Below, piece by piece: positions 9,341 through 31,415 of a stretch of DNA of 64,000 bases (the stretch's first letter is position 1; each line of letters opens with the position of its first letter). The notes beneath the pieces are model-generated. The model searched no databases and was not told the origin of the DNA. It saw only the letters and a program-made list of their open reading frames with translations. The translations under genes were made by a program, and so were the position numbers. Where the stretch lies: assembly GCA_018001695.1 (NCBI GenBank), contig JAGNHN010000001.1:8226-72225 (forward strand), given 5' to 3'. Source of the stretch: Lentimicrobiaceae bacterium. GTDB lineage: Bacteria > Bacteroidota > Bacteroidia > Bacteroidales > JAGNHN01.

Positions 9341-11602
9341 CTAAACAGCGGTACCTGCTTCCATACCAATGCGTTCAATGCGCTGCATTCCCTGAATCTT
9401 GCGTAAATGGGCGATGGTATCCTCAAGCTGTTGGGTTCCGGTGACCATAAACATGATGGTGGCATCACAGACCTCGCCAGTGCTGCTGAGATTGAAAGTC
9501 TTGATATTGAGCCCATACTGTCCCGTGATCACGGCAGCGATCTCGCTGATCAGCCCTGGCCTGTCGATGCTCCTCAGTTTCACCCCTGATAAAAACACAT
9601 CAGCATTGTTGCTCATCCAGTTCGTCTTGACGATCCTGTCACCGAAACGGGACATGAGCCTGACGGCTTCAGGACAATTGCTGCGATGCAAACGGGTCGG
9701 CTCACTGGGTGAGATGAATCCGACGATCTCATCCCCGGGAATCGGAAGGCAGCAAGGGGAGACATCAAAAGAGGAACTGGCTTTACTTCCTTCAATCAAA
9801 AAGTCGCCCTTGTTCTTTTTGATTGTGTCTTCTACTTCTTCTGTCAGGCTTTTACCGGGCTTACTCTGTCTGGTAAAGGGGCGGCTGATCTTCCTGAACC
9901 AGTTGTTTTTTTCCGGATTTCCGAAATACTCCCTGACTTCTTTCATTCCCAGAAGATCATGGGCAAAGTCGAAATACAGGTCGATCAGGTTCGTCCGTCC
10001 GGTATACCGTTGTATTTGAATGATGACCGGACGTGAAGGTTCGATACTAAGCTGGGCCAGGATGCGCTCAAGCTTATCTTTACCTGCATCAAAATACACC
10101 TGACGATCGTCTTTCAGTGCTGATTTGATATATGAGATGGCTTTGGCTGTGCGGACGAATTTCAGCCACTCTGCTTTGGGTTTTTGCTTGCGCGAGGTGA
10201 TGATCTCCACCTGATCTCCGGTCCTGAGGACATGGCTCAACGGAACCAGTTTCAGGTTCACCTTGGCAGCTATGGCGGTATTTCCAATCTCAGAATGGAT
10301 ATGATAGGCAAAATCAAGAGCGGTAGATCCACCGGGTATGGTTTTCATATCCCCCTTAGGGGTGAATATAAAAATCTCATCATGAAACAGATTGAGCTTG
10401 AAATCACTCAGGAAATCCAGCGCATCCTCCTCCGTATTCCCTTCCAGCAGCTCCCTGACCCGGGCCAGCCAGTCATCCAGCCCGCTCTCACTACCGTTGT
10501 CCTTGTATTTCCAATGGGCAGCATATCCTTTTTCAGCGATCTCATCCATACGGCGGGTCCGGATCTGCACCTCCACCCATTTTCCGGTATGGCTCATCAG
10601 TGTAGCATGCAGGGCTTCGTATCCATTGGATTTCGGAAAGGCGATCCAGTCACGAAGCCGGTCCAGGTTGGGCCTGTAGAAATCCGTAATGATGGAATAC
10701 ACACGCCAGCAATCGGTTTTCTCCTTTGCAAGCGGGGATTCTATGATGATGCGTATGGCAAAGAGATCATATACCTCCTCGAAGGGGATCTCCTTTTTGC
10801 GCATTTTATGCCAGATACTATAAATGGATTTGGTTCTGCCAAAGATCTCATAAGGAATACCCTGATCGGTAAGTGCCCGGCGGATCGGATGGATGAACTC
10901 TTCTATAAAGGCATTCCTTTCCTCTTCAGATTCCTTCAGCTTCTGAGAAACAGTACGATATATCTCAGGCTCCATATACTTCAGGGCCAGATCCTCCAGT
11001 TCACTTTTGATGCTGAACAAGCCCAGCCGGTGGGCCAGGGGTGCATAGAGATAGGTGGTCTCGGAAGCAATCTTAAGCTGCTTGGCCGGCGACATGGCAT
11101 CCAGGGTGCGCATATTGTGCAGGCGGTCTGCAAGCTTGATTAGGATCACGCGGACATCATCCGACAAGGTCAGCAGCATCTTCTTATAGTTCTCTGCCTG
11201 TGCCGATTCAGATGTGAAATCGAAGATGCCCTTGATCTTGGTCAGGCCATCAATGATCTTTGCCACCTTCTCACCGAACAAATCCTCAATATCAGCCAGG
11301 GTGTAATCAGTATCTTCGACCACATCGTGCAGGAGTGCACAAATGATCGAAGTGGTACCCAGACCGATCTCCGAGGCGACGATATGTGCTACCTCCAGCG
11401 GATGGTAAATGTAAGGCTCCCCACTTTTACGCCGCATATCCTTATGCGCTTCCACAGCCAGGTTCAGGGCTTTGCGTACAAGCTGCTGCTCCTTCTTATC
11501 CTTGGGAAACCGCCAGGCACGCAGCAGCAGGGCATATCGCTTCAGAATGGCGATGCGTTCCTCCCTGAGATCAAACTGTTTGTGGAGCCCCGACTCTGGC
11601 AT
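9341..11602 (-). CDS. relA: Bifunctional (p)ppGpp synthetase/hydrolase (RelA/SpoT homolog)
   Basis: 753 aa. It has an HD hydrolase motif (LLHDVVEDT), a synthetase region (DLFAIRIII...GYEALHATL), then TGS- and ACT-like C-terminal regions. Confidence 0.95.
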   Translation of the reverse strand: MPESGLHKQFDLREERIAILKRYALLLRAWRFPKDKKEQQLVRKALNLAVEAHKDMRRKSGEPYIYHPLEVAHIVASEIGLGTTSIICALLHDVVEDTDYTLADIEDLFGEKVAKIIDGLTKIKGIFDFTSESAQAENYKKMLLTLSDDVRVILIKLADRLHNMRTLDAMSPAKQLKIASETTYLYAPLAHRLGLFSIKSELEDLALKYMEPEIYRTVSQKLKESEEERNAFIEEFIHPIRRALTDQGIPYEIFGRTKSIYSIWHKMRKKEIPFEEVYDLFAIRIIIESPLAKEKTDCWRVYSIITDFYRPNLDRLRDWIAFPKSNGYEALHATLMSHTGKWVEVQIRTRRMDEIAEKGYAAHWKYKDNGSESGLDDWLARVRELLEGNTEEDALDFLSDFKLNLFHDEIFIFTPKGDMKTIPGGSTALDFAYHIHSEIGNTAIAAKVNLKLVPLSHVLRTGDQVEIITSRKQKPKAEWLKFVRTAKAISYIKSALKDDRQVYFDAGKDKLERILAQLSIEPSRPVIIQIQRYTGRTNLIDLYFDFAHDLLGMKEVREYFGNPEKNNWFRKISRPFTRQSKPGKSLTEEVEDTIKKNKGDFLIEGSKASSSFDVSPCCLPIPGDEIVGFISPSEPTRLHRSNCPEAVRLMSRFGDRIVKTNWMSNNADVFLSGVKLRSIDRPGLISEIAAVITGQYGLNIKTFNLSSTGEVCDATIMFMVTGTQQLEDTIAHLRKIQGMQRIERIGMEAGTAV

Positions 11603-11709: not shown

Positions 11710-14325
11710 ATGATGAATGCTTACCTTTGGAAGATGAATTGGTTTCTGTCAGGCATTACGAAGTTCCTGATCAGCAGTATCTTCTTGTTGATGCTGCCAG
11801 GACTGGCATTCGGGACCCATCAGCGTGCCGGTGAAATCACCTACCGGCACCTCTTTGGATTGACCTACGAAGTCACTATCCTTACCTATACTTTCTCTCC
11901 CAGTCCGGCTGACCGGCCTGAACTGGTCATCAATTGGGGAGACGGACTGACCAACATCCTACCCCGCTCCCAGTTTGTTGACTTACCAAACGATATCCGC
12001 CGTAATGTTTATGTAGGACAGCACACCTACAATGGACCTGGGGCCTATATGCTCTCGATGGAGGATCCCAACCGCAACTACGGCGTCATCAATATCCCGA
12101 ATTCTGTCAATGTTCCCTTGTATATCGAAACCCTGCTGATCATCAACCCATTTTTAGGACCGAACAATTCAGCAGTTCTGACCCTTCCACCGATCGATAA
12201 CGGTTGTGCCAACCTGCCTTATCTCCACAACCCGGGTGCTTATGATCCCGATGGAGACAGCCTGAGCTACAGGCTGGTAACCTGCCGTGGTACGGGTGGA
12301 CTGCCCATACCGGGTTATACCTATCCCCCTGCCACCAACAGCTTCAGCCTCGATTCAGTGACCGGAGACCTCCTTTGGGATAGTCCCCCCATGCAAGGGG
12401 AATATAATGTGGCCATTCTGATCGAGGAATGGCGCAACGGTATCAAGATTGGCGCTATCGTCCGGGATATGCAGATCATCATCGTAGCCTGTAACCAGGA
12501 TCCGCCCGTGATCGCGCCGCTCATAGATACCTGCGTTGAGGCCGGCACCATGCTCACCTTCACCGTAACAGCCACGGATGTCAACAACGACCTGATCCAG
12601 CTTATTGGCACCGGTGCCCCCATGAACCTCGCCAACAGCCCGGCTTACTTCGATACCATTACGGGTGTTGGAAGCGTCTCACAGCAATTCAGCTGGCAGA
12701 CCATCTGCCCACATGTCCGCAAATCACCTTATCTGGTTTATTTCAAGGCGACAGATAACGGCAGCCCGGTCAACCTTGTTGATATTGCCAATGTTCGCAT
12801 CCAGGTGATCTCCCCGGGCCCGAAAAACCTCATCGCTACACCGCTGGGCAACCGCATCACCCTCAACTGGGATCCTACACCCTGCAACCAGGCCACCGGG
12901 TATGATATTTACCGTAGGACCAATTCTTTCGGATTCATCCCGGGTCATTGTGAAACCGGGGTTCCCGCTTATACAGGTTACCAGAAAATTGCTTCCGTCA
13001 GTGGATGGAGCACGAACCAGTATGAGGATGACGGTCAAAACGGGGCCCTGGTGCACGGACAGGTATACTGCTATATGGTTGTCGCCACTTTTTCCGATGG
13101 TGCTGAAAGCTACGCATCCAATGAAGCCTGTGCCACACTGAAAAGAGATGTGCCCATCATCACCCACGTCAGTGTTCTGAACACCTCCACCACAACCGGC
13201 CGGATCAAGATAGCCTGGGATCCGCCTACGGAATTGGATTTTTTACAGACTCCAGGGCCTTTCCGGTACAGGATTATGCGGGGAATCGGAGCCAACCTGA
13301 CCGCCATCGATTCCCTTGATCAGTTGACGGACACTCTGTACATAGACACATTGCTGAACACCCTCGGTATGGCCTACCGGTATCAGATTGACTTTATAAA
13401 TCTTACACCGGGAAATGTCTTCCAGATAGGCAGCTCCAGCCAGGCCTCCTCTGTTTACGTGCAGGCAGCTCCCACTGATCAACGTATACAGCTATCCTGG
13501 ACAGCCCAGGTTCCCTGGAGCAATCAACGATACGACATTTACAGATGGAACCTGCTCACACTGGTGTTTGACTCCATCGCCTCGACAACAGGTAGTCAAT
13601 ACACAGATACGCTGTTGACCAACGGACAGGAGTATTGTTACAAAGTTTTGGCGACTGGTAGCTATTCGCGGCCTGACATCACCAGCCCGCTTTTAAACTG
13701 GAGCCAGGAAACCTGTGCCACACCCCTCGACAACGAACCACCTTGCGCACCCTATCTGGAAGTAACCACTAATTGTGAAATACCGGCCAATGTGCTGACA
13801 TGGAATGCCTTCTTACCTGGTTGCCCGGAAGATATTGCTTCCTATGAGCTATTCTATGCGCCACGCCAGGATCAGGATCCTGTTCTCATCAGCCGTATTG
13901 ATAACCCTGGTATAGAAACATTCACACATACCGGCGCTGCCACCATTGCAGGATGTTACCTGGTTGTGGCTATAGACTCCCTTGGCAATCGAAGCCTTTA
14001 TAGCAATAAGGTCTGCATTGATATCGACGCATGTGAACGCTATCGCCTGCCCAATGTCTTTACCCCCAATGGGGATGGGTTGAATGACCTCTTCGTGCCT
14101 TTTCCGTATAGTTCTGTTGAAAAGGTAGATATGATTATTTATAACCGCTGGGGTTCAATCGTTTATAAGACTGAAAATCCTGATATTGAATGGAATGGTA
14201 ACATGATGGGAAGCGGTCAGGCATGTAGCGATGGTGTCTATTATTATGTTTGTGAAGTGTTTGAGATCACGCTGAATGGACCGGCAAGACGTTCACTGCA
14301 AGGCGTGATTCATCTGATGAGATAA
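11710..14325 (+). CDS. T9SS type-B (gliding-motility-associated) C-terminal sorting domain protein
   Basis: 871 aa. The N-terminus has a signal peptide plus GTHQRAGEITYRH. The C-terminus RYRLPNVFTPNGDGLNDLFVP...YNRWG is the type-B CTD signature. Confidence 0.8.
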   Translation: MMNAYLWKMNWFLSGITKFLISSIFLLMLPGLAFGTHQRAGEITYRHLFGLTYEVTILTYTFSPSPADRPELVINWGDGLTNILPRSQFVDLPNDIRRNVYVGQHTYNGPGAYMLSMEDPNRNYGVINIPNSVNVPLYIETLLIINPFLGPNNSAVLTLPPIDNGCANLPYLHNPGAYDPDGDSLSYRLVTCRGTGGLPIPGYTYPPATNSFSLDSVTGDLLWDSPPMQGEYNVAILIEEWRNGIKIGAIVRDMQIIIVACNQDPPVIAPLIDTCVEAGTMLTFTVTATDVNNDLIQLIGTGAPMNLANSPAYFDTITGVGSVSQQFSWQTICPHVRKSPYLVYFKATDNGSPVNLVDIANVRIQVISPGPKNLIATPLGNRITLNWDPTPCNQATGYDIYRRTNSFGFIPGHCETGVPAYTGYQKIASVSGWSTNQYEDDGQNGALVHGQVYCYMVVATFSDGAESYASNEACATLKRDVPIITHVSVLNTSTTTGRIKIAWDPPTELDFLQTPGPFRYRIMRGIGANLTAIDSLDQLTDTLYIDTLLNTLGMAYRYQIDFINLTPGNVFQIGSSSQASSVYVQAAPTDQRIQLSWTAQVPWSNQRYDIYRWNLLTLVFDSIASTTGSQYTDTLLTNGQEYCYKVLATGSYSRPDITSPLLNWSQETCATPLDNEPPCAPYLEVTTNCEIPANVLTWNAFLPGCPEDIASYELFYAPRQDQDPVLISRIDNPGIETFTHTGAATIAGCYLVVAIDSLGNRSLYSNKVCIDIDACERYRLPNVFTPNGDGLNDLFVPFPYSSVEKVDMIIYNRWGSIVYKTENPDIEWNGNMMGSGQACSDGVYYYVCEVFEITLNGPARRSLQGVIHLMR

Positions 14326-17172: not shown

Positions 17173-18381
17173 TTAAATCTTCAGCAATTTCGAGGCAAAT
17201 TGTGAAACACCATCACTGAAGCGTAGGACATACAGGCCATTGCATAGGTGTTTAAGGTCAATTTCCTGCTCTTCGGGCCCATTTCTGAACCAAAGCTCAT
17301 CAATGTAAAGCCGTTTTCCTGTAATATCCAGAACCTCAATTTCTAACCATTGCTGGGAGGAGGGTGTATAGCTAATATGCAGGATACCATCACGGATCGG
17401 ACTTGGGTAGTGTGAAACGCGTGAAGAAAGCCCGTACTCAGGAAGTCCGGCGGTGCTGTACCCTCCGTTCAGGGTCTTTAGAACAGTTCCCATACTCCCA
17501 ACGACATAACCGATGTTGTTATTGACAAACCAGGCATCCTTGAGGAAGTCGAGGGTACCCGACTGCTGCTGCTGGAAGGATATTCCACCATCAACAGTAC
17601 GGACGATATTACCGGTAGAGCTGACGATCCAGCCCAATCCGGGTGATACGAAGAAGCAGCCTGGGTAAGTAGTAAAAGGACCCAGGTTCCGCGGTGACCA
17701 GGAATTGCCCCCACTGGTTGTTTTTAGCAGCTTATCACTATAGGTGGCATACCCTGTAAGTGAGTCGGCGAAAAACAGGCTAAGTATGGCCTCGGTGGTG
17801 CCGCTGGTTTGAGGCGTCCAGGTTGTACCGCCATCCGTGGTATTGAGGATGGTGCCACCCAATCCTGCAACCCAACCCCTTTGCGTTGAGGTGAAGTGAA
17901 TATCGGTTAATTTGACCGTTGTGCCGGTATTCAAAGGGAACCAGTTCGTTCCCCCATTATAGGTATAGATGATCGTACCATTGTCGCCACAGGCAAAACC
18001 AAGCTCGGTATTCACAAAGAAGACCTTATTAAGATGATTGGTTGTGCCCGTCGTCATATTTGTCCATGTAGTGCCCCCGTTGGAGGTTTTAAACAGCCTG
18101 CCGCTGTTTCCACAGGTATATCCGACCTGATTATTCAGGAAATAGACACTTTGGAGGAGTGTTGGGGCTGGCGCCGTCTGGGTTGTCCAGGATGTACCAC
18201 CATTAGACGTGTGCAGAATCCTACTGGTACCACCTACAACCCAACCGGTATTGGCATCCACAAAGCAGACACTGTTCAGATTTTCGTTGGTGGGCACTGT
18301 GAGTTTGAACCAGCCTTCCTGGGCCTGGCTGATGAACATGCCTAAGGAGAGGATCATAACAAGGGTAAGTCTTCTTTTCAT
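17173..18381 (-). CDS. BNR/Ycf48-like beta-propeller protein with T9SS type-A C-terminal domain
   Basis: It has seven or more repeats of T(S/T)(N/D)GGT(S/T)W(T). The signal peptide is MKRRLTLVMILSLGMFISQAQ and the C-terminus is ...LYVLRFSDGVSQFASKLLKI. The start is ambiguous (18381, 18387 or 18438); I chose the ATG that gives a canonical signal peptide. Confidence 0.72.
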   Translation of the reverse strand: MKRRLTLVMILSLGMFISQAQEGWFKLTVPTNENLNSVCFVDANTGWVVGGTSRILHTSNGGTSWTTQTAPAPTLLQSVYFLNNQVGYTCGNSGRLFKTSNGGTTWTNMTTGTTNHLNKVFFVNTELGFACGDNGTIIYTYNGGTNWFPLNTGTTVKLTDIHFTSTQRGWVAGLGGTILNTTDGGTTWTPQTSGTTEAILSLFFADSLTGYATYSDKLLKTTSGGNSWSPRNLGPFTTYPGCFFVSPGLGWIVSSTGNIVRTVDGGISFQQQQSGTLDFLKDAWFVNNNIGYVVGSMGTVLKTLNGGYSTAGLPEYGLSSRVSHYPSPIRDGILHISYTPSSQQWLEIEVLDITGKRLYIDELWFRNGPEEQEIDLKHLCNGLYVLRFSDGVSQFASKLLKI

Positions 18382-18490
18382 ATTCATGCAGATTAGTTGT
18401 ATGTACATCCATTTTGCCTGCCAGATTGACGTCTTCATGGAGATCTCTCATCCCTGATACAGACGATGGCAAATCAGCCTTAAATGTATA

Positions 18491-20613: not shown

Positions 20614-22122
20614 TTATATTCTATACATACCACTATGACGTCCATATACCTTCCAACGTGAAGGCTCATGAGATTTCAGACTGCCGGCCGCAGCTTTGCT
20701 GAGCTGGCTCTGATAATCAAGAAAAGCGGTGATGACTGCCAGATCCTCACAGACCCTGTCACACTCCTGCCTGGAGGTCAGAAACTCAATATTGTCATCT
20801 ATAAAATGTGTATTGTACTTGCCACTGATGAAAGCATCAGCCTGCATAATACGCTCAAGGAACTTGATGGAAGTTTTGACGCCGGTGATCTTATACTCAT
20901 ACAAGGCACGCCGCATGCGCCGGATGGCTTCCTCACGCGTCTTTCCCCAGACGATCAGTTTGGAGATCATGGGGTCATAATACATCGGGATCTCATATCC
21001 TTCGTATACGTAACCATCATGCCTTACACCCAGACCCAGCGGCTCAGTGATATGGCGGATCAGTCCCGGGCTCGGCATAAAGCCCCTATCCGGGTCCTCA
21101 GCATAAATGCGGCACTCGATAGCGTGCCCTTGCTGCCGAAGGTCTTCTTGCCGGAAGGGCAGGTTGCCGCCTGATGCGATGTTGATCTGCTCCTTGACCA
21201 GGTCAACGCCCACCACGCGCTCGGTGATGGGGTGCTCAACCTGGAGGCGGGTATTCATCTCCAGAAAATAATAGTTCAGATTGTCATCCACGATGAATTC
21301 GATGGTGCCTGCCCCGTAATAATCCACAGCGCGGGCAGCTGCCACAGCATCCTCCCCCATTTTCGCCCTGATCTCAGGCGTCAGCAGTGGGCTGGGGGTT
21401 TCTTCGATCACTTTTTGATGACGGCGCTGTATAGAGCACTCACGCTCAAACAGATGCACCGTGTTCCCGTGCTTATCTGCCAGCACCTGAAATTCGATAT
21501 GATGCGGTGAATCAATATATTTCTCAACATAAACGGCATCATCGCCGAAGGCAGCCATGGCCTCTGAACGCGCAGCACGTATGCTTTCAAGGACTTTGTC
21601 TTCATCCCGGACCAGGCGCATGCCTTTACCGCCTCCTCCGGCTGAGGCTTTAATCATGACCGGTAATCCAATCTCCCTGACCACCTTCAAGGCCTCCGTT
21701 TCATCCGTGATCGCCGATTCCGTTCCGGGAACCACGGGTACCCCCGCTGCGATCATGGTCTTGCGGGCTGTGATCTTATCGCCCATGGTTGAGATGGCTT
21801 CCGGGCTGGGACCAATGAAATTAATCCCATCCTCAGCACAACGGCGCGCAAAGGTGGCATTCTCAGACAGAAAGCCATAGCCAGGATGAATGGCATCCGC
21901 CCCGCTTTGCCTGGCCGCATCCAGGATACGGTCCATATTCAAATAACTTTCCTGGGAAGGGGCCGGGCCGATGAAAATGGCTTCATCTGCATACCTCACA
22001 TGCATGGCCTTGCGGTCGGCTTCCGAATATACCGCTACCGAGAGGATTCCCAGCTCCCGGCAAGACCGCATGATCCTGACGGCAATCTCTCCCCGGTTCG
22101 CAACCAGTACTTTTCGAATCAT
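20614..22122 (-). CDS. accC: Biotin carboxylase subunit
   Basis: 502 aa. Starts MIRKVLVANRGEIAVRIMR, and has an ATP-grasp region (GGGGKGMR) and the biotin carboxylase C-terminal region. Confidence 0.95.
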   Translation of the reverse strand: MIRKVLVANRGEIAVRIMRSCRELGILSVAVYSEADRKAMHVRYADEAIFIGPAPSQESYLNMDRILDAARQSGADAIHPGYGFLSENATFARRCAEDGINFIGPSPEAISTMGDKITARKTMIAAGVPVVPGTESAITDETEALKVVREIGLPVMIKASAGGGGKGMRLVRDEDKVLESIRAARSEAMAAFGDDAVYVEKYIDSPHHIEFQVLADKHGNTVHLFERECSIQRRHQKVIEETPSPLLTPEIRAKMGEDAVAAARAVDYYGAGTIEFIVDDNLNYYFLEMNTRLQVEHPITERVVGVDLVKEQINIASGGNLPFRQEDLRQQGHAIECRIYAEDPDRGFMPSPGLIRHITEPLGLGVRHDGYVYEGYEIPMYYDPMISKLIVWGKTREEAIRRMRRALYEYKITGVKTSIKFLERIMQADAFISGKYNTHFIDDNIEFLTSRQECDRVCEDLAVITAFLDYQSQLSKAAAGSLKSHEPSRWKVYGRHSGMYRI

Positions 22123-22141
22123 AAATTCAGGATTGTAGGCA

Positions 22142-22149
22142 CAAATGTA
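22142..22149 (-). promoter_or_regulatory. -7 box (TACATTTG) upstream of accC operon
   Basis: Exact TAnnTTTG match, 19 nt upstream of the ATG at 22122. Confidence 0.45.
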
Positions 22150-22251
22150 TGGATATAATTACATATGATTGCTAAATGTTGATAAAATTCTCCCTGTCTG
22201 CAACGGCCGTATGAGAAACCAAGATACGAAATTTTTCCGGAGCTTTGACTG

Positions 22252-23097
22252 ATGCAACATAGCCATAAAAAGATGGATCACTACAGCATAAATGATATCC
22301 GGGAAGCTGCTGATTTCCTACGGTCACAAGGGATAACACAACCTGTCATCGGCATCATACTGGGGACAGGACTGGATGCCATGACAGATCACATACAACC
22401 TTTGTGCGCCATCGCGTATGGCAGCATCCCCCATTTTCCTGTTTCAACAGTAGATTTTCATAAAGGGCAACTGATCTATGGGATGTTGGGAAACAAATAT
22501 GTCCTGGCCATGCAAGGACGTTTCCACCTTTATGAAGGCTATTCCCTGCAGCGCATCACTTTTCCCATCAGGGTCATGAAGGTACTAGGGATCAATACGC
22601 TCCTTGTATCCAATGCCTCAGGATCGATGAATCCGTCCATGAAAAAGGGGGAGCTGATGGTACTGGAAGACCACATCAACCTGCAGCCCGGCAGTCCACT
22701 GGCCGGCCCCAACCTGGACGAGCTTGGGACACGCTTTCCGGACATGAGCGAGCCTTATTCCCCGGATCTCCGTAAACGACTGCATGCGATTGCATCAGCA
22801 AGAGGTATACTACTGCATGAAGGTGTTTATGTTGCTGTAGCGGGGCCACAATTTGAGACCAGGGCTGAATACCGGTACCTGCGCGCAATGGGTGCCGATG
22901 CCGTGGGCATGTCGACGGTGCCTGAAGTAATCGTCGCGAGACATATGGGCATGGAAGTGGCCGCCGTTTCGGCCATCACTGATGAATGCGACCCCGATAA
23001 GCTGGTGCCCTTGTCGCTGGAAGATATCCTGGCCGCTGCCGCAAGGGCAGAAAAAGACCTGACCCTGTTATTTAATGATCTCATCCTGAGCATGTAA
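22252..23097 (+). CDS. Purine nucleoside phosphorylase (PunA / PNP family 2)
   Basis: 281 aa. Motifs: GIILGTGL...FHLYEGY...SNASGS...GPQFETRAE...GADAVGMSTVPE. An alternative start at 22273 (MDHYSIN...) is possible. Confidence 0.9.
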   Translation: MQHSHKKMDHYSINDIREAADFLRSQGITQPVIGIILGTGLDAMTDHIQPLCAIAYGSIPHFPVSTVDFHKGQLIYGMLGNKYVLAMQGRFHLYEGYSLQRITFPIRVMKVLGINTLLVSNASGSMNPSMKKGELMVLEDHINLQPGSPLAGPNLDELGTRFPDMSEPYSPDLRKRLHAIASARGILLHEGVYVAVAGPQFETRAEYRYLRAMGADAVGMSTVPEVIVARHMGMEVAAVSAITDECDPDKLVPLSLEDILAAAARAEKDLTLLFNDLILSM

Positions 23098-23162
23098 CCC
23101 TGCGACATGCCGGCACAGGCCTTCACACTTTCCGGCTGGAAGAGCAGGTCAACTTTTATGCC

Positions 23163-23170
23163 TACTTTTG
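23163..23170 (+). promoter_or_regulatory. -7 box (TACTTTTG) upstream of typA
   Basis: Exact TAnnTTTG match, 28 nt upstream of the ATG at 23199. Confidence 0.45.
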
Positions 23171-23198
23171 CAGCCCGTTCCATATTCAGGGCCATCGC

Positions 23199-25007
23199 AT
23201 GCAGGAAATCAGAAATATCGCCATCATTGCTCACGTCGACCATGGTAAAACCACCCTTGTTGACCGGATTCTTCATCAGGTTAAACTGTTCCGTGATAAT
23301 CAGCAGATGGGTGATCTGATCCTGGACTCCAACGAACTGGAAAGAGAGAGAGGGATTACCATTCTGGCAAAAAACGTCTCGGTCCGTTATAAAGGAGTTA
23401 AAATCAACATTATTGATACGCCGGGCCATGCTGATTTTGGGGGCGAGGTGGAGCGCGTACTGAACATGGCAGATGGGGTTCTGCTGGTCGTGGATGCTTT
23501 TGAAGGACCCATGCCACAAACCCGTTTCGTTTTGCAGAAGGCCCTGGAAATGGGATTGAAGCCGATTGTGGTTATCAACAAGGTTGACAAACCCAACTGT
23601 GATCCTGAAGAGGTGCAGGAGCAGATCTTCGAATTAATGTACAGCCTGGAGGCCGAAGAGGACCAGTTGGACTTTCCGACGGTATATGGATCCTCCAAGC
23701 AGGGCTGGATGGGGCCAGACTGGGAGCATCCTGCGCAGGATGTGAGTTATCTGCTGGACACCATTCTGGAACATATACCGCCTCCGCCCATCAACGAAGG
23801 CAGCCTGCAGGTTCAGATCAGCTCACTGGATTACTCCTCATACGTAGGCCGTATTGCGGTCGGCCGCATCCACCGTGGCCAGATCCAGGCAGGCATGCAG
23901 GTTTCTGTCCTGAAGCGCGACGGGAGTGTGCATAAGTCTCAGGTGAAAGAACTCTACGTATTTGAGGGACTGGGAAAGGAGAAAATCAAGGTGCCTGTCG
24001 GTTCCGGTGAGATATGCGCCATCCTGGGACCTGAGAACTTTGACATCGGAGATACCATTACAGATGCGCTGGAACCCGAAGCGTTGCCGCCTATCATGGT
24101 TGACGAACCGACCATGAACATGCTCTTTACGATCAACAACTCCCCTTTCTTCGGCCAGGATGGCACCTATGTTACGTCCCGCCATATACGTGACCGGCTG
24201 TTTAAGGAAATGGAACGCAACCTGGCGCTGAGGGTGGATGAAACCGACAGCCCCGACCGCCTGCTGGTCTACGGCCGCGGCATCCTGCACCTTTCGATCC
24301 TGGTCGAAACCATGCGCAGGGAAGGTTATGAGTTTCAGATCGGACAGCCTCAGGTCATTACCCGTGACGTTGATGGACAAAAATACGAACCGGTGGAATA
24401 CCTTACCGTTCATGTTCCGGATGGTTTTGCAGGCAAAGTCATCGAGATTGTCACACGCCGGAAGGGAGAGGTTATCACCATCGAGCCCCGTAACGACAGG
24501 GTGATCCTGGAATTCACCATTCCCGCCCGTGGCTTGATCGGATTGACCAATCCCATACTCACTGCGACAGAAGGGGAAGCCATCATCGCTCACCGTTTCA
24601 AATCTTTTGAACCCTGGAAAGGTGAAATACAGGGCCGGCGCAACGGGTCACTCATCGCACTCGAGACAGGTACAGCCATCGCTTACTCCATCGATAAGTT
24701 GCAGGACAGGGGTAAGTTTTTCATCGACCCCAATGATGAAGTCTATGCCGGACAAATCATTGGTGAGAGTACCCGACCTGATGACCTGGTTGTTAATGTA
24801 ATCAAAACCAAAAAGTTAACAAACATACGCGCTTCAGGCTCAGACGATAAGATCATCATTACCCCTGCTGTGAAATTCTCCCTGGAAGAGGCTATGGAGT
24901 ACATCGGTCCTGATGAGTACATCGAAGTGACCCCAAAAATCATCCGGCTGCGAAAGATCATTCTGGATGAACATGAGCGCAAACGCGCCAAAAAGCAGGA
25001 TAACTAA
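23199..25007 (+). CDS. typA: Translational GTPase TypA/BipA
   Basis: 602 aa. Motifs [19 protein letters not shown] and [14 protein letters not shown], with BipA-like similarity over the full length. Confidence 0.97.
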
Positions 25008-25032: not shown

Positions 25033-27564
25033 TCAATCAGGCATGGGGGAAAGCGACTGCCGCAATAAAACAGCTTCGGGATCATCTTTCAACGTCCCCA
25101 TTGACTTTTGCAGTGACTGTGCACGGGAGGTGTTCACGTCACCCCGGCATATCCCTTTTATGATGAAAGCATGATGTCCTGAAACCATCTGTACAACAGT
25201 GTCTTCGAAGATCCAGTCCGAAGCAGAGAAATGCGGGATCCATCCGGCGAAACGCTGGGCGACCATCAGGGCATCTGTCGCATTGATAAAACCTGCCCCA
25301 TCTGTATCTGCAGCTTTCAGAGGAAGGCCTTCAAGGGTGTCCAACCCCACAAAGTGCCTCAGTATCAGCAGGGCATCGGTTGAATTGACCCCGCCCCATG
25401 GCAGGCTACTACCGCCTTGGATATTCATTGCCCCGGGCCAGATGGGGCCTGTCAAAATCAACCCGGATGTATCAGATCCATAACGATGGCCTGGTTGACC
25501 TGATATGCTGATGTCGAGCCAGGATAAACCCAGATTGTAAAGCGATCCCTCATACTGCATGTATACTTCCATACTGGGGCAATCGATGGTATGCAAAATG
25601 GCATTCCTGAAGTCTACCGGATACTCCAGTCCATTGGCGCCGTAATACCTGCATTTCCATGGCCGATCGGCTACCCATACCAAAGGCATGCTGCCTGTAT
25701 CAGCCAGGAAGGTGAGGACGACCAGGGTATCTTCACCAAGATGCAGGTCATGAATGGTGTTGAAGGTGATCCAAATCTCATCTCCGGAAAGATAAACCTG
25801 TGGGTTGGCCGATTGTATTCGGGCATGCATATAACTGACCCCCTGATACTTAAGACGTGAAGTATCAATGCGAAGTGTCATGCTGCCTGCCCTTGTGAAG
25901 TACATATTGCTGAAGCGGACAGCCAGATCAACGGTATCAGCACAAAGGCTCATTGTGTCGATCCAGGTCCGGATGGTATCGTGCGAGGGACGCACCTGGA
26001 TGCGTGACAGTTGAATGAGAGTGTCAGACCCATAAGCATTGGTGACGGTTAAGCCTACATCATATACACCAGGAGTGAAATAGATAACCGGCGGAGGATA
26101 CCTGCCAGACCAGGTCTCAGGGACTCCGCCCGGAAATGACCACACCCAGCTCGATGGCAGGAAGGAAGACTGATCATAGAACCATATGGTGTCACCTACC
26201 CGTATCGATGTATCGGAGTAGGATAAAGAAGCCTGTGGCGGATAGGCCTGAGGATACATACCATCCAGCTGCAGCTGCCCTGTCTGAAGCGGATCCAGCC
26301 ACTCACGAAGCCGGGTTTGGGGTGTGGCACCATTTTGATCCCAGGAAACTGAAAATTTACCAAAGAAACTCTCACCCAACGGATTGCTGCATGAGGCCTG
26401 GCCGCCAGTATAGGTTCCCACCAGCCTTCCCTGCTTGTTCATCAGGGGTGCCCCCTCGCCGCCAGGGCCCAGGGTACTGAAACCATTATCAGTAGGCTTC
26501 CACCTGAGTTTCCAGTGGGTGTTGACAATCCCACCACCAAAGTGACCATGTTCCAATAGGCTGTCAAACATGGCAATTTGCTTAACCAGGCTGCCCGTAA
26601 AGTGGATGCTGACACCGGAGTCAGCGGGCGCAGGATTACGATCCCATCCCATAAAATAAGGCTGATAAGCGGCAGGGATATATTGATTCAACCTCATCAG
26701 GAAAAAATCCGATCCCAGGTTACAACTGATGCCACCACTGGCGACCTCTGTGGCTCCTGTCAGCGTTTTCAGGGCAGCAGGCAGGCCAGTGGTATCACAT
26801 GCCGGAAGCTCATAATCGAAGTAGAAGACCGTCTGAAGAAGGTCCGATGCGGTAACACCGGTCACGCTGTAATCGGAGGTAAGAATGTAAGGCGTTGCAT
26901 CCAGCCTGGTGTTATTGATGAGCACGCCACTGATCAGCTTGAGCAAACCAGCCTTCTTCAAGAGAATGCGCACCACCGCCTTCTTTTCATCCTGCCAGGC
27001 CAGGCCTTCCGGAAGGCAGTTGACATTCACTTTGCATGCCACCGTGCTTTCAACACCACCTGATCCCATAATGCCCGACAATACATCCTTATCTGCCAGG
27101 GCCAGGGCTTCGGTGATGATTAAAGGTTGTATGCGTGTTTGAGCGTTTCTTACATACTTCAGAATGAGTGTATTTCCACGCTGCAGCGGCATGACTGCAG
27201 GACCACCCCTGGCTTCCCGGGCGGTAAACACCCATGTGGGAGCAGCCTGCGCTGATGTGTAGATCAAAAGGCTGTCTGATCCAGGAATCAATAAATCCTT
27301 AAAATACAAACCTACTGCAGCGGCATCAAACAGAGGAGATTGCCAAATCAACCCAGGATTGTCATGAATACCATTGATTGTCAGTCGCTTTTCTAATAGG
27401 AATAACGGTATCTCATCTGAAGTGCCGGCATGATCCTGTCGTTCTATCAAACCAGGAGAAGATGGTAAATTTCCGGCATTAAATGACTGGGCTGTCAACC
27501 AAAGGGGCAGACAACTGAGCAGCATCCATGTCAACCTGAGTCCCGGAAACCAGTTCAATCTCAT
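25033..27564 (-). CDS. Secreted trypsin-fold (lysyl-endopeptidase-like) pseudoprotease with PKD-like and dockerin-like modules
   Basis: The signal peptide MRLNWFPGLRLTWMLLSCLPLWLTAQS sets the start at 27564; the track ORF begins 16 codons upstream. S1-like blocks are NVNC, SGVLINNT, PYILTSDYS, SDFFLMRL, GGEGAPLMN and GGQASC. A PKD-like segment is present (VYDVGLTVTNAYGSD). Dockerin-like repeats are VNSTDALLILRHFVG and DTDGAGFINATDALMVAQRFAG. Confidence 0.62.
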   Translation of the reverse strand: MRLNWFPGLRLTWMLLSCLPLWLTAQSFNAGNLPSSPGLIERQDHAGTSDEIPLFLLEKRLTINGIHDNPGLIWQSPLFDAAAVGLYFKDLLIPGSDSLLIYTSAQAAPTWVFTAREARGGPAVMPLQRGNTLILKYVRNAQTRIQPLIITEALALADKDVLSGIMGSGGVESTVACKVNVNCLPEGLAWQDEKKAVVRILLKKAGLLKLISGVLINNTRLDATPYILTSDYSVTGVTASDLLQTVFYFDYELPACDTTGLPAALKTLTGATEVASGGISCNLGSDFFLMRLNQYIPAAYQPYFMGWDRNPAPADSGVSIHFTGSLVKQIAMFDSLLEHGHFGGGIVNTHWKLRWKPTDNGFSTLGPGGEGAPLMNKQGRLVGTYTGGQASCSNPLGESFFGKFSVSWDQNGATPQTRLREWLDPLQTGQLQLDGMYPQAYPPQASLSYSDTSIRVGDTIWFYDQSSFLPSSWVWSFPGGVPETWSGRYPPPVIYFTPGVYDVGLTVTNAYGSDTLIQLSRIQVRPSHDTIRTWIDTMSLCADTVDLAVRFSNMYFTRAGSMTLRIDTSRLKYQGVSYMHARIQSANPQVYLSGDEIWITFNTIHDLHLGEDTLVVLTFLADTGSMPLVWVADRPWKCRYYGANGLEYPVDFRNAILHTIDCPSMEVYMQYEGSLYNLGLSWLDISISGQPGHRYGSDTSGLILTGPIWPGAMNIQGGSSLPWGGVNSTDALLILRHFVGLDTLEGLPLKAADTDGAGFINATDALMVAQRFAGWIPHFSASDWIFEDTVVQMVSGHHAFIIKGICRGDVNTSRAQSLQKSMGTLKDDPEAVLLRQSLSPMPD

Positions 27565-27737
27565 ATCTTTAGTACGAAGTTCGATAATATTCAGAGATAA
27601 TGCTGTTAACACCCTGTTAAACTTACGTCCGTGTAAAAAACGATCCGCCGCTGCTAATGTTCAGGCAATGATCACAGGCTGGATGCATGAAAGCCTAAAT
27701 TCCCTAATTTTAACATTGCAACGCTAAGCCACTGCCT

Positions 27738-28931
27738 ATGCGCGCTTTTCATTTTCGACGTTCTGGCTTCTGCCTTCTGGGCTTTTTTTTAGGCAGCCTG
27801 GCATTTGTGTCACAGGCATTTGGCCAACCTTATGCAACGGGGCAAGTCAGCCGGACATTCGTTGACAGTACCCGAAATAACAGGCCCATTTCCGCATCGG
27901 TCTATTATCCGGCTCAGACTCCCGGAGAAGGTGTGCCATTGGCGGCCGGCAGTTTTCCGGTACTTTCACTGGGTCATGGCTTCGTGATGCAGATCTCAGC
28001 ATATGCCAATTTTGTCCGGGACCTGGTGCCTACGGGATATATTCTTGTCCTGCCGAATACAGAAACAGGAACATCTCCCAGCCACCTCAACTTCGGGCTG
28101 GACCTGGCCTTTGTGATCAGAGCCATGAAAAAGGAAGGTGCAGACTCTGGAAGCCTGTTCTTTGGGCATGTACAAACAAATTCGGCTGTAATGGGACATT
28201 CGATGGGAGGTGGGGCCGCCTTTCTGGCAGCCGATTCCGACACAGGTATAACAGCTCTGGTTACTTTTGCAGCAGCCATCACAAATCCTTCCAGTGTCAG
28301 TGCAGCCGGCACTGTCATTCAGCCCTCTCTTGTCTTCGCAGGATCAGATGACTGCGTTACGCCCCCGCTCCAACACCAGAAGCCGATGTACGATTCGCTG
28401 GCATCACCCTGTAAAGCCTTTATCAGTATCACCGGGGGCGGGCATTGTTACTTTGCTGATTATAACCTGCTATGCTCCATAGGCGAGAACCTGTGTAATC
28501 CTAATCTTACAATTACACGGGAACAGCAACAAGACGTCATGACAGACTTTCTTATACTGTGGCTCGACTGCAAACTCAAGGGCCTGTCTTCAGCATGCGG
28601 ACAGTTTCAGGACTCACTGCTGAGCTCTGGCAGAATCACTTACGAACAGTCCTGCATCAGCCTGGGCATGCTGCAGCATCGGGCCGCGGACCAGCCCTGT
28701 GAGCTGTATCCCATTCCCTTCAGCGAAACCGCGAGGCTTTACTGTATGGAGATGGCGGAAAGTGTGGAATGGTTGGATATGTCTGGCAGGGTGCTGTTTC
28801 GGAAAGAATACCAGGCGGGTATCCACGAAGACATCTTTCAGCTGGATTCCCACCCCGCCGGTCCTTACCTTATACGTGTAAGGATGAAGTCAGGTGCCCT
28901 TCATGTTATAAAAGGAATTAAAACATATTAA
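27738..28931 (+). CDS. Secreted alpha/beta hydrolase (lipase/cutinase/chlorophyllase-like) with T9SS type-A CTD
   Basis: 397 aa with a signal peptide (...LAFVSQAFGQ) and a nucleophile elbow, GHSMGGG. Candidate acid residue is in GSDDCV and candidate His in GGGHCYF. The C-terminal ~75 aa look like a Por-type CTD (LYPIPFS...YLIRVRMKSG...IKGIK). Confidence 0.7.
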   Translation: MRAFHFRRSGFCLLGFFLGSLAFVSQAFGQPYATGQVSRTFVDSTRNNRPISASVYYPAQTPGEGVPLAAGSFPVLSLGHGFVMQISAYANFVRDLVPTGYILVLPNTETGTSPSHLNFGLDLAFVIRAMKKEGADSGSLFFGHVQTNSAVMGHSMGGGAAFLAADSDTGITALVTFAAAITNPSSVSAAGTVIQPSLVFAGSDDCVTPPLQHQKPMYDSLASPCKAFISITGGGHCYFADYNLLCSIGENLCNPNLTITREQQQDVMTDFLILWLDCKLKGLSSACGQFQDSLLSSGRITYEQSCISLGMLQHRAADQPCELYPIPFSETARLYCMEMAESVEWLDMSGRVLFRKEYQAGIHEDIFQLDSHPAGPYLIRVRMKSGALHVIKGIKTY

Positions 28932-28951
28932 TATAATCTGATTTGTTGCAG

Positions 28952-30253
28952 ATGAACAACGCCATCATCCGCAGCTGTGCGCTGCTCCTGCTCCTCACGC
29001 CGCTATTATATATCCATGCACAGGAGAACCCTGCCAGTTTTCTGCATTCCTTGCCAGGCGTGAAAGTGGAAGTCCTTACACCTGGTAAACACTTTACAGC
29101 AAGGTATTTATTATGGATTGAGCAGCCTGTTGACCATCTTCAGCCTTCGTCCGGCACTTTTCAGCAGCGTGTTTTACTTTCTATCCGGAAAGGTGCCACT
29201 ACTATGATTTTCAATACCGACGGATACGATATTGAAGACTATCTGGATCCTGACTACGTGCATGAATTGAGCACATTGCTCGAGGCACACCAACTTGATG
29301 TTGAGCACCGGTATTATCCACCCTCCTCTCCGCAGAACCGTGACTGGACGTATCTCACCGTAGCTCAGGCAGCTGCCGATCATCACCGGATAGTCGCACT
29401 CCTCAAACCTCTATTTCAGGGTGCATGGGTTGGAACCGGCATCAGTAAGGGAGGACAGGCAGCAATGTTCCACCGGTACTACTATCCTGATGATGTGGAC
29501 ATTACAGTTGGCTATGTATGTCCACTGGCTTTCTCTACCGAAGACCTAAGGGTATACTCTTTTCTCAGAGAGGTTGGGGACACCTTCTGTCGCACACGCA
29601 TCCGGGCGTTTCAGGAACGCATGCTGCGGGAAAGGGAAGAGCTCATGCCTGCGTTTATCAAAGCTGCTGAGAAAAAGGGACTGCGGTATTTCATGGGATA
29701 TGACAAGGCATATGAACTACTCGTGCTGGAGTATGCTTTTGCCTTTTGGCAATGGGGCAGCATGGATTGCAGCCGCATTCCCCTGGATGCCCGAAAACCA
29801 TCTGTTTTGATCGGTCATCTGGACAGTGTGGCAGACCTTGAATGGGTCTCTGAAGGGTTCTTGACAGATAATCCCTTCTTTTACCAGGCACTCACCGAGA
29901 TTGGCATGTATGGTTATGATACCAGCGGATGGCATGGCCTCCTTCGTTACATGGACGTGCCAGGGTTTGAATTTGCCTGCCCTTCAGGTACCCAGTGCCT
30001 GTATAACCCGGAGACCATGCAGAAAGTCGATGCCTTTGTTCGCCACCATGCCCGTCACATGCTGTTTTTATACGGGGAGTATGATCCATGGTCGGCTACA
30101 GCTGTCCAGTGGTCAGGCAATCCCGGCGTCAGAGTTCATATCCATAAAGGAGGTAGCCATCGCACACGGATCATGAACCTGGATGAACCGGCCAGGAAAG
30201 AACTGACAACCCTCTTAAAAACATGGTTGACAGAGATTGGCAAACAGAAATAA
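28952..30253 (+). CDS. Secreted S28/S37-like serine peptidase (aminopeptidase-like, alpha/beta fold)
   Basis: Signal peptide MNNAIIRSCALLLLLTPLLYIHAQ. Motifs QPVDH...FQQRV and GISKGG (GxSxG). I chose the ATG at 28952 over the TTG at 28943. Confidence 0.55.
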   Translation: MNNAIIRSCALLLLLTPLLYIHAQENPASFLHSLPGVKVEVLTPGKHFTARYLLWIEQPVDHLQPSSGTFQQRVLLSIRKGATTMIFNTDGYDIEDYLDPDYVHELSTLLEAHQLDVEHRYYPPSSPQNRDWTYLTVAQAAADHHRIVALLKPLFQGAWVGTGISKGGQAAMFHRYYYPDDVDITVGYVCPLAFSTEDLRVYSFLREVGDTFCRTRIRAFQERMLREREELMPAFIKAAEKKGLRYFMGYDKAYELLVLEYAFAFWQWGSMDCSRIPLDARKPSVLIGHLDSVADLEWVSEGFLTDNPFFYQALTEIGMYGYDTSGWHGLLRYMDVPGFEFACPSGTQCLYNPETMQKVDAFVRHHARHMLFLYGEYDPWSATAVQWSGNPGVRVHIHKGGSHRTRIMNLDEPARKELTTLLKTWLTEIGKQK

Positions 30254-30308
30254 CATATATAACCCTGTATAATTTCGTCTCATTCCAATAGAATTTAAAA
30301 CTGAAGCT

Positions 30309-31415
30309 ATGCCCAATGCCCTTCTCCACCTTACTTTTCTATTATCCTTCCTTACCTATGTGAACATTAATGCGCAGTCGCAAGAGCGAGTTACGGAAAG
30401 GACATTGATATTGGTTCATCCTACCGTCAGCAACATACAGCGCTTTCAGGTTTTGTTGGAGGAGGGAGTTTTTCCACTGCCCACTGATTATCGCATTCTG
30501 GGGCTGGCCCATCAAAAGGAAAGTTATGATTATCAGCAAAGTGTGGCATACCTGCAACAACATCCAGGTTCTTATCCCATGGAAATCAAGCTATTGGATT
30601 GCACGCTGGATACGAGTAGCATTTACAACCTTCCACATCCCTGTTCCGGTGATTTTGAAGAGTTGTTCAGCCTTGGCAACGGCATTATTTTTCTGGGGGG
30701 GCATGATTTGCTACCCACGGTCTATCAGACCCCACAGGACCTACTATGCCAACCAGAGGATCCGTACAGAAGTATCTGGGAATCATCGTTTATTTTTCAT
30801 CTTTTAGGCAACAACCGCAACCCGCAACACACTGCGTGGATGGCCCGTAAACCTGAATTCGTGATCCTTGGGATATGCCTGGGGATGCAAACCCTGAATG
30901 CCGCTACCGGCGGGACTTTGTACCAGGATATCCCCGCCAGGATTTATGGACTTGAGACACTGGAATCTGTCAGGGCACTGCCGCCGGATCAGATGCATCG
31001 CAACTATCATAGAGATCAGCATATGGATACCAGGCTCTCCTACTATCATCCGCATCGCATCCGTTTTACCGGCGACAACCGAATAAGCGCGATGGCAGGA
31101 AACGCTACGCAGCATCCGGTGGTCATGAGCAGCCACCACCAGGCCATCCAATTATTAAGTTCCGGTTGGGAGATACTCGCTACTTCTATGGATGGTCAGG
31201 TTATAGAAGCCATTGGGCATCAACGCCATCCACATGTTCTGGGGGTTCAGTTTCACCCTGAGTTACGCGAAATCTACCAGTCCGGATCCTTGATTTATCT
31301 TAAGGGAGATGAGCCGGGCTTTTCTTTTGCCAGGCAATACGAAGATTATCAGGGGTACGCATTTCATCTTGGTTTCTGGCGGGAAATGGCCAGATGGCTG
31401 GAAGGCATCAGATAA
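30309..31415 (+). CDS. Secreted class-I glutamine amidotransferase-like / peptidase C26 (gamma-glutamyl hydrolase) family protein
   Basis: 368 aa with a signal peptide (LLSFLTYVNINAQS). The catalytic Cys context is GICLGMQTLN and the His context is GVQFHPE. Confidence 0.75.
   Translation: MPNALLHLTFLLSFLTYVNINAQSQERVTERTLILVHPTVSNIQRFQVLLEEGVFPLPTDYRILGLAHQKESYDYQQSVAYLQQHPGSYPMEIKLLDCTLDTSSIYNLPHPCSGDFEELFSLGNGIIFLGGHDLLPTVYQTPQDLLCQPEDPYRSIWESSFIFHLLGNNRNPQHTAWMARKPEFVILGICLGMQTLNAATGGTLYQDIPARIYGLETLESVRALPPDQMHRNYHRDQHMDTRLSYYHPHRIRFTGDNRISAMAGNATQHPVVMSSHHQAIQLLSSGWEILATSMDGQVIEAIGHQRHPHVLGVQFHPELREIYQSGSLIYLKGDEPGFSFARQYEDYQGYAFHLGFWREMARWLEGIR

Follow-up and report, generated by a model that had tools for sequence, protein, structure and literature searches.

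Some members of the S1 family no longer cut: in animals, azurocidin, haptoglobin and the clip-domain serine protease homologues are non-peptidase S1 proteins, and bacterial pseudoproteases that are clearly under selection are, to our knowledge, few. The protein analysed here is encoded at positions 25033-27564 on the minus strand of a 64-kb stretch of contig JAGNHN010000001.1 from a Lentimicrobiaceae metagenome-assembled genome (MAG); this whole stretch is called the window below, and all coordinates refer to it. Its closest described enzymes are the lysyl endopeptidases Achromobacter protease I (API; Protein Data Bank (PDB) 1arb) and Lysobacter Lys-C (4nsy), together with PepK of Porphyromonas gingivalis, a Lys-specific serine endopeptidase secreted through a type IX secretion system (T9SS) (PMC4674972). 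For the C-terminal part of the protein, the closest described architectures are the cohesin-X-dockerin part of Clostridium thermocellum CipA (3kcp, 4fl4) and adaptor scaffoldins such as ScaA/ScaB; a cohesin and a dockerin together on one protein are what marks an adaptor. Cohesin and dockerin proteins outside cellulosomes were reportedly described by Peer et al. in 2009, and the Archaeoglobus fulgidus cohesin 2xdh is a further non-cellulosomal example. In Cloacimonadota, dockerin-bearing peptidases and a cohesin scaffoldin with a T9SS C-terminal sorting domain (CTD) have been inferred from sequence (PMC8542988), and dockerins of Bacteroidetes have been reported in rumen metagenomes (PMC6487960).

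Compared to these systems, the 843-aa protein reads as a catalytically dead lysyl endopeptidase that is fused to a PKD domain, a cohesin and a dockerin. Similar to API, Lys-C and PepK, it has a homologous S1 domain with the catalytic Asp113, the cysteines of the Cys6-Cys216 and Cys12-Cys80 pairs and a long pro-like region, and its nearest relatives are T9SS cargo. Unlike these enzymes, it has replaced His57, Ser194, Asp225 and the Cys36-Cys58 pair, it has neither a basic processing site nor a CTD, and it carries a cohesin and a dockerin. On balance, we favour the reading that it serves as a non-catalytic binding or adaptor subunit of a T9SS-linked cohesin-dockerin surface assembly. Pseudoproteases and non-cellulosomal cohesin-dockerin proteins were known already; what appears to be new here is a fixed tail, composed of a beta-sandwich with an inserted dockerin, a cohesin and a CTD, and a dead protease as its cargo. 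No description of this tail or of such a cargo, and no paper linking Lentimicrobium with dockerins, was found in the open-access literature. Similar to the Cloacimonadota and rumen reports, the cohesins and dockerins of this family are not tied to cellulose, occur with peptidase-type domains in the FCB group (Fibrobacterota, Chlorobiota and Bacteroidota) and use the T9SS CTD as a cell anchor; the enzymes in those reports are presumed to be active, in contrast to the dead protease described here.

The S1 (chymotrypsin-fold) domain of the API/Lys-C type spans 26245-27054. Residues 176-436 align with residues 5-261 of API at an E value of 1.6e-28 (phmmer), the match to Lys-C has an E value of ~4e-24, and the S1 domain is 28-31% identical to these two enzymes. 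A model of residues 28-445 built from 38 sequences (predicted local distance difference test (pLDDT) 85.4, predicted template modelling score (pTM) 0.87) superposes with its S1 part on 1arb and 4nsy with a template modelling (TM) score of 0.86-0.87 and a root-mean-square deviation (rmsd) of 2.3-2.6 Å (Foldseek). The generic Pfam profile Trypsin_2 reached 12.6 bits, which is under its cut-off, and NCBIfam gave no match, so that the case for an S1 domain rests on the specific relationship to API and Lys-C. This agrees with the original prediction, which had been made from the sequence without database searches and had proposed a lysyl-endopeptidase-like trypsin fold; the family motifs that it quoted are all present in the translation.

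Equivalent residues were assigned in API numbering from the pairwise alignment and from multiple alignments with ~50 and 24 relatives. Tyr232 (26869-26871) occupies the position of the catalytic His57 (LTSDYS, compared to LTA(D/N)HC in the family) and Glu370 (26455-26457) that of the catalytic Ser194 (PGGEGAP, compared to GSSGSP), while Asp286 (26707-26709; GSDFFL) is the retained catalytic Asp113, exactly the pattern of two lost residues and one kept that had been suspected. A triad at shifted positions was considered as well and was rejected by the pairwise and multiple alignments and by the fold match. Two further changes had gone unmentioned in the original prediction: in the specificity pocket, Asp225, which binds the substrate lysine, is replaced by Ser399 (GESFFG, compared to xPDYYG), and the Cys36-Cys58 pair is lost through the replacement of Cys36 by Ile and of Cys58 by Ser. 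As the tests for both the triad and Lys specificity failed, we classified the S1 domain as a non-peptidase homologue: the catalytic residues are missing from an otherwise preserved predicted fold, which, as judged from the sequence, should make a serine-protease mechanism impossible. No metal-binding or other replacement site was identified in the dead S1 domain.

Both catalytic residues are lost in only four lineages among ~75 relatives, and ~70 others keep xHC and GSSG. His57 and Ser194 are replaced by Tyr and Glu in the 843-aa protein (P0001), by Asn and Glu in P0002 (52% identical and with the same neighbouring genes), by Asp and Gln in P0056 (locus L003 of another Lentimicrobiaceae MAG) and by Asn and Thr in P0004 (locus L002). 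Because the replacements differ across the four lineages, they do not appear to have introduced a new catalytic pair. Conservation among 47 active relatives reaches 80% or more at fourteen positions whose residue differs in three or all four of the dead lineages; these positions surround the active site and cleft (C36, A55, H57, H149, P150, G187, E190, S194, S196 and others). A few residues were gained in all four, an example being Cys281 (26722-26724; GGISCNLGSD), which sits just before the Asp113 equivalent. P0056 and P0004 keep Cys58 and have lost its usual partner Cys36, and a disulfide could have re-formed there with a new partner; Cys281 would be unpaired in the 843-aa protein and P0002. 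A search with a profile of the dead S1 domains for further members of the clade returned active relatives only, plus the partial protein P0262 (288 aa; a relative with a T9SS CTD), which reads GSVGAP, with Val in place of Ser194, and groups with the active enzymes. It may represent an independent inactivation or a sequencing error, and its His57 region lies outside the fragment.

The dead domain is also the most conserved part of the protein. Within the clade, S1 identity is 63, 54 and 50%, compared to 12-56% for the other domains, and only 4 of the 36 amino-acid differences from a 96%-identical copy fall in the S1 domain, which makes up 32% of the length. The ratio of nonsynonymous to synonymous substitution rates (dN/dS; Nei-Gojobori) was 0.108 for the S1 domain, 0.32 for the rest and 0.27 overall, and the S1 value departs from neutrality (P = 6e-5). 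The orthologues at 52% and ~45% identity are intact, and the 843-aa open reading frame (ORF) is unbroken across many independent assemblies. The gene encodes a maintained pseudoenzyme and is not decaying, and the earlier suggestion that the protease scaffold had been repurposed was thus borne out. With different replacements in four lineages and a dead domain that is the slowest to evolve, the clade offers a clean case for following a trypsin fold after cutting has stopped. Among the structural matches of the S1 model was MamO of magnetotactic bacteria (PDB 5hm9/5hma; Foldseek). Similar to MamO and the animal S1 pseudoproteases, the domain is a trypsin fold that selection has kept for non-catalytic reuse; unlike them, it belongs to another S1 subfamily, it is of independent origin, and only here is it fused to a cohesin and a dockerin.

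At the N-terminus, where a signal peptide had been proposed, inspection of the sequence points to a predicted Sec signal peptide (MRLNWFPGLRLTWMLLSCLPLWLTA, followed by QSF; 27490-27564) with a typical n-h-c pattern and an LTA/Q junction. The residue after the predicted cleavage site is Gln, and Bacteroidota signal peptidase I substrates are known for a 'Q-rule'. An all-beta domain follows at residues 28-170 (27055-27483; ordered at ~51-157), which is homologous to the N-terminal pro-region found in all active family members and is modelled packed against the S1 domain (pTM 0.87), the linker at residues 170-174 having low pLDDT. Of 48 active relatives, 35 have a Lys or Arg located 5-12 residues ahead of the first conserved cysteine (Cys6), a position at which a Lys/Arg-specific enzyme would free its own pro-region; the four dead ones all lack it. 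Because the pro/mature junction has no basic residue in the dead protein, the pro-like domain would stay attached to it. A Pfam search of the N-terminal 175 residues found no match, and a fold search with the model of the N-terminal and S1 domains together was swamped by S1 proteases and returned no named fold for the N-terminal domain.

Downstream of the S1 domain, a PKD domain (residues 442-517; 26014-26241) and a type-I dockerin (residues 724-772; 25249-25395) are the only Pfam families above their cut-offs in the protein (PF00801, match 445-515, 26.0 bits with a cut-off of 23.5; PF00404, 29.4 bits with a cut-off of 22.9, and 31.1 bits on the C-terminal fragment alone). Both modules had been recognised originally, yet the list was incomplete, as a cohesin-fold domain between them (residues 528-662; 25579-25983) had been missed, and the dockerin, though present, does not stand free: it is inserted between the strands of a prealbumin/CarboxypepD_reg-like beta-sandwich (residues 665-816; 25117-25572) that ends in GDVxxS. 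The cohesin assignment came from homologous segments and from the model. Repeats of P0070, P0079 and P0082 align with residues 531-665, and these three proteins match Pfam Cohesin at E values of 1e-16 to 1e-20; in P0069, the stretch matched by our protein begins where a weak Cohesin match begins; and the family profile reaches, by sequence, the PDB cohesins 2xdh (E 3e-3) and 5nrk (E 7e-3) as well as dockerins. A model of the C-terminal part built from 23 sequences has a pLDDT of 90.2 and a pTM of 0.73, with pLDDT above 90 in the cohesin part, which superposes on the type-I cohesins 6kgc/6kge (TM 0.77-0.78, rmsd 2.4 Å) and on the Archaeoglobus cohesin 2xdh (TM 0.80, rmsd 2.1 Å; both Foldseek).

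The second unit (~665-816) consists of the first 55 positions of a CarboxypepD_reg/prealbumin-like profile, the dockerin and ~40 more residues. The model runs from a beta-sandwich through five strands and three helices to three further strands, so that the dockerin is an insertion in the second beta-sandwich. The unit ends in an invariant G-D-x-x-x-S (consensus LCxGDV(D/N)GSYxP), which in our protein is the GDVNTS motif at residues 808-813 (25126-25143) that closes the module; the Gly, Asp and Ser of this motif do not vary among 23 family members. G-D-x-x-x-S resembles positions 1, 3 and 5 of a calcium loop, and because the dockerin is an insertion, GDVNTS and the first dockerin loop could meet and form one split calcium site. 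The 27 residues after the module (25036-25116) are poorly conserved and modelled with low confidence; in relatives, a second cohesin and a T9SS CTD are found there. The PDB entries 8x39/8x3a, named 'Serine protease', were considered as a solved relative of the whole module and rejected, since they contain only a tandem double dockerin.

The best match of the whole C-terminal model was the CipA cohesin-X-dockerin (3kcp, 4fl4; E ~1e-12). The order of cohesin, Ig-like beta module and dockerin is alike in our protein, CipA and ScaA/ScaB. Unlike in CipA, the dockerin lies inside the beta-sandwich and not after it, the rigid-body arrangement differs (TM 0.35, rmsd ~11 Å), the host is Gram-negative and T9SS-linked, and there is no carbohydrate-active module. 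A cellulosome in the strict sense was not found: Pfam identified no domain of a carbohydrate-active enzyme on the 843-aa protein, and giants with multiple cohesins were seen in related metagenomic proteins and genomes, the search in this genome covering the 64-kb window.

The tail belongs to a much larger family. A HMMER scan with residues 518-843 against 1.84 billion cluster representatives returned 1,912 proteins at E <= 1e-3, of which 1,098 reached E <= 1e-10, with matches that split into the two units ~531-665 and ~665-816, the former being repeated 4-10 times in giant proteins. The dockerin-bearing module ends either at most 9 residues from the C-terminus or 207-239 residues before it, and the longer distance, the usual case, is taken up by a second cohesin-like domain and, after it, a classic T9SS type-A sorting domain (NYPNPF...). 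A genome scan with one genome per species found 401 loci, nearly all in uncultured Bacteroidales or other Bacteroidota and a few in Ignavibacteria and Sphingobacteriaceae; many genomes have several of them, and among the best 80 alone, single genomes contributed 14, 13 and 12, and a Lentimicrobiaceae MAG four. The expectation that a dockerin would be unusual outside Firmicutes was therefore too strong, the more so because dockerins of the FCB group had been reported already (PMC8542988, PMC6487960). The paralogues inspected contain SprB/Ig repeats, multiple cohesins or large N-terminal regions of other kinds, and all of them end in the beta-sandwich with dockerin, a cohesin and a CTD. One paralogue (L022) appears gingipain-like by eye. 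Giants of 2,000-5,700 aa (for example P0058, P0059, P0062 and P0063; loci L023 and L030) combine 4-10 cohesin-like repeats with a single dockerin module, a cohesin and a T9SS CTD and look like scaffoldins.

From these features, we propose the following scheme. The protein would be a Sec-exported pseudoenzyme of the Bacteroidota lysyl-endopeptidase family that has kept the two-barrel S1 fold and the pro-like domain. With its nucleophile, general base, Lys-binding Asp and cleft residues replaced, it should not cleave peptide bonds, and its S1 domain would have been retained by selection for another task, most plausibly the binding of a protein or peptide ligand. The dockerin would plug, in a calcium-dependent manner, into the cohesin of a second protein, usually a surface-anchored one with a CTD, and the protein's own cohesin could receive yet another protein with a dockerin, in the manner of adaptor scaffoldins. 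In this arrangement the dead protease would serve a multiprotein assembly at the cell surface as its binding or adaptor component. The identities of the domains, the missing catalytic residues, the purifying selection, the architecture throughout the family and this lineage's loss of the cohesin-CTD ending rest on observation; the cohesin-dockerin binding, the partner, the S1 ligand and the final location are the parts of this scheme that we infer. If the modules bind, these bacteria organise secreted proteins, peptidases included, into assemblies, a principle whose study has so far been confined almost entirely to cellulolytic Firmicutes. As a lead, the larger T9SS-linked cohesin-dockerin system is more interesting than the gene itself: it is apparently little described, and it covers ~1,900 protein clusters, frequently with a dozen or more genes in one genome. 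A bolder extension, which we regard as distinctly unlikely in its full form, is that the fixed tail of beta-sandwich with inserted dockerin, cohesin and T9SS CTD marks an undescribed plug-and-socket network, tied to type IX secretion, over the surface of many uncultured Bacteroidales, in which members without a CTD would dock in the periplasm to CTD-bearing partners and be exported piggy-back via the T9SS translocon, the dead protease then working outside the cell as a substrate-capturing adaptor.

Several observations weigh against an adaptor role at the surface. The surface location itself is an assumption, because no way of passing the outer membrane is known for a protein that lacks a T9SS CTD, and the periplasmic and self-association explanations discussed below therefore keep some probability. 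Even the class of ligand that the S1 domain would bind may differ between lineages, because two of the dead ones retain Asp225 and two have lost it. The profile searches brought PKD and Dockerin_1 above their cut-offs, but gave no direct Pfam match for a cohesin, as PF00963 was not found at E <= 10 on residues 512-843. The first dockerin loop (SSLPWGGVNSTD) is non-canonical, with only positions 9 and 12 kept, a deviation that is family-wide (PWGG(V/A)NxxD; PWGGVNSTD in our protein, 25375-25401), and the second (DTDGAGFINATD) is near-canonical with an Ala at position 5. Purpose-built hidden Markov models (HMMs) of the cohesin, the dockerin module and the tail found no cohesin or dockerin partner in the 64-kb window; the original prediction had proposed a search of the genome for cohesin-like partners. 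Finally, the contrast in dN/dS between the S1 domain and the rest is suggestive only, as the substitutions are few (Fisher P = 0.09).

The question of location is tied to the loss of the sorting domain. No T9SS CTD (PF18962/TIGR04183) was found on the 843-aa protein by Pfam, NCBIfam or the purpose-built tail HMM, in line with the original prediction of no type-A CTD, but its absence is a derived state. Locus L002 encodes a dead S1 domain, PKD, cohesin, dockerin module, cohesin and CTD and is the sole member of the dead clade with the cohesin-CTD ending; since it carries the full tail, the ancestor of the dead clade had the full tail, and the comparison of sequences indicates that the last cohesin and the sorting domain were lost in the lineage of the 843-aa protein, P0002 and P0056. 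At L002, the gene of P0004 (4703-7919 of that locus) is spread over several reading frames, which contain S1-PKD, cohesin, dockerin module, cohesin and CTD, respectively; the frame breaks are either long-read indel errors or a real pseudogene. A protein that combines a predicted signal peptide with the specific loss of the ending kept by its L002 relative might stay in the periplasm and act there as a holdase, chaperone or quality-control adaptor for cohesin- or dockerin-bearing cargo before export, and ~40% of the module-bearing proteins listed likewise stop right after the dockerin module without a sorting domain. We consider this unlikely, as extracellular proteins are where calcium-dependent dockerins and PKD domains typically occur, and as the nearest relatives, like almost all paralogues, are T9SS cargo; moreover, we know of no periplasmic cohesin-dockerin system. 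The members without a sorting domain also raise the concrete question of how such proteins leave the cell.

An alternative explanation for the co-occurrence of the two modules is that the protein's own cohesin and dockerin bind each other, giving either an auto-inhibited closed form or homo-oligomers and chains that need no scaffold. The modules lie in one chain only 60 residues apart, most paralogues likewise have the dockerin beside a cohesin, and the fairly high pTM of the three-domain model (0.73) may point to a defined mutual arrangement. This possibility also has a low probability in our estimation, since cohesins and dockerins of the same chain usually do not recognise each other in CipA and ScaA/ScaB.

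The strong constraint on the fold and on much of the cleft framework would also fit a decoy or regulator of active lysyl-endopeptidase paralogues, which titrates protease inhibitors or holds substrates or the pro-regions of the active enzymes, and related genomes contain many such paralogues. Heavy remodelling of the cleft speaks against it, with the 14 conserved positions altered and the S1 Asp lost, and no active paralogue was seen in the window, which makes this role quite improbable. It is very improbable that the protein is still a hydrolase working through unconventional residues such as Glu370, Asp286 and Tyr232: although Asp113 is kept and acidic or Tyr residues stand at the other two positions, the four lineages show Y/N/D/N and E/E/Q/T without any conserved replacement chemistry, and the oxyanion and cleft residues G187, E190 and S196 are altered too. 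A functionless, decaying gene is barely credible: the losses of the catalytic residues, the T9SS CTD and the processing site and the broken frames of the L002 relative would speak for it, but they are countered by intact 843-aa ORFs in many assemblies, intact orthologues and a dN/dS of 0.27 overall and 0.11 in the dead domain.

The gene comprises 843 codons and a TGA stop, and its product is identical to NCBI MBP7848659.1 from a Lentimicrobiaceae MAG, where it is named 'PKD domain-containing protein'; a copy with 98% identity is listed by NCBI as 'dockerin type I domain-containing protein'. A single long minus-strand ORF spans 25033-27612, and the ATG at 27564, which gives 843 aa, is also the start of the 96%-identical copy in another assembly (L083). 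The cluster at 90% identity or more comprises 27 sequences, drawn from NCBI, JGI, ENA and Logan assemblies, and a motif pattern search found LTSDYS in all of its full-length members, which come from independent assemblies, except P0246. An assembly or sequencing artefact was rejected, as the same motifs occur in all but one full-length independent copy. The gene is monocistronic: it diverges from a gene starting at 27738 and faces typA in convergent orientation, with only 25 nt between its stop codon and the end of typA at 25007. A promoter and terminator scan gave no signal exceeding the shuffled background. Synteny is kept at L001 and L083, the latter having the same start and the same neighbours.

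Directly upstream and on the opposite strand lies a run of three hydrolase genes (27738-31415, plus strand), whose products have hydrophobic, signal-peptide-like N-termini. They encode a PETase/chlorophyllase-like alpha/beta hydrolase with a T9SS CTD (27738-28931, plus), which adjoins the orthologues in L001 and L083 too, a Peptidase_S37 (28943-30253, plus), of which a fragment is also found upstream in L003, and a Peptidase_C26 (30309-31415, plus). Four other ORFs of the window are matched by the tail HMM through their T9SS CTD. Besides the PETase-like hydrolase, T9SS cargo is encoded at 11710-14325 (plus), 17173-18438 (minus), 44867-47068 (plus) and 47297-51232 (plus), one of these genes having a CHU_C (type-B) sorting domain and three a type-A domain; one of the type-A cargoes is a 1,311-aa protein with GEVED, CARDB and CarboxypepD_reg domains, and cohesin and dockerin are absent from all four. 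The GC content is even at ~0.50 throughout the window, and there is no sign of a mobile element around the gene. The housekeeping genes of the window (74-2755, 9341-11602 and 20614-25007) are ordinary and encode LptD, a RelA/SpoT homologue and TypA/BipA, and the same set includes a biotin-carboxylase-like and a purine-nucleoside-phosphorylase-like ORF.

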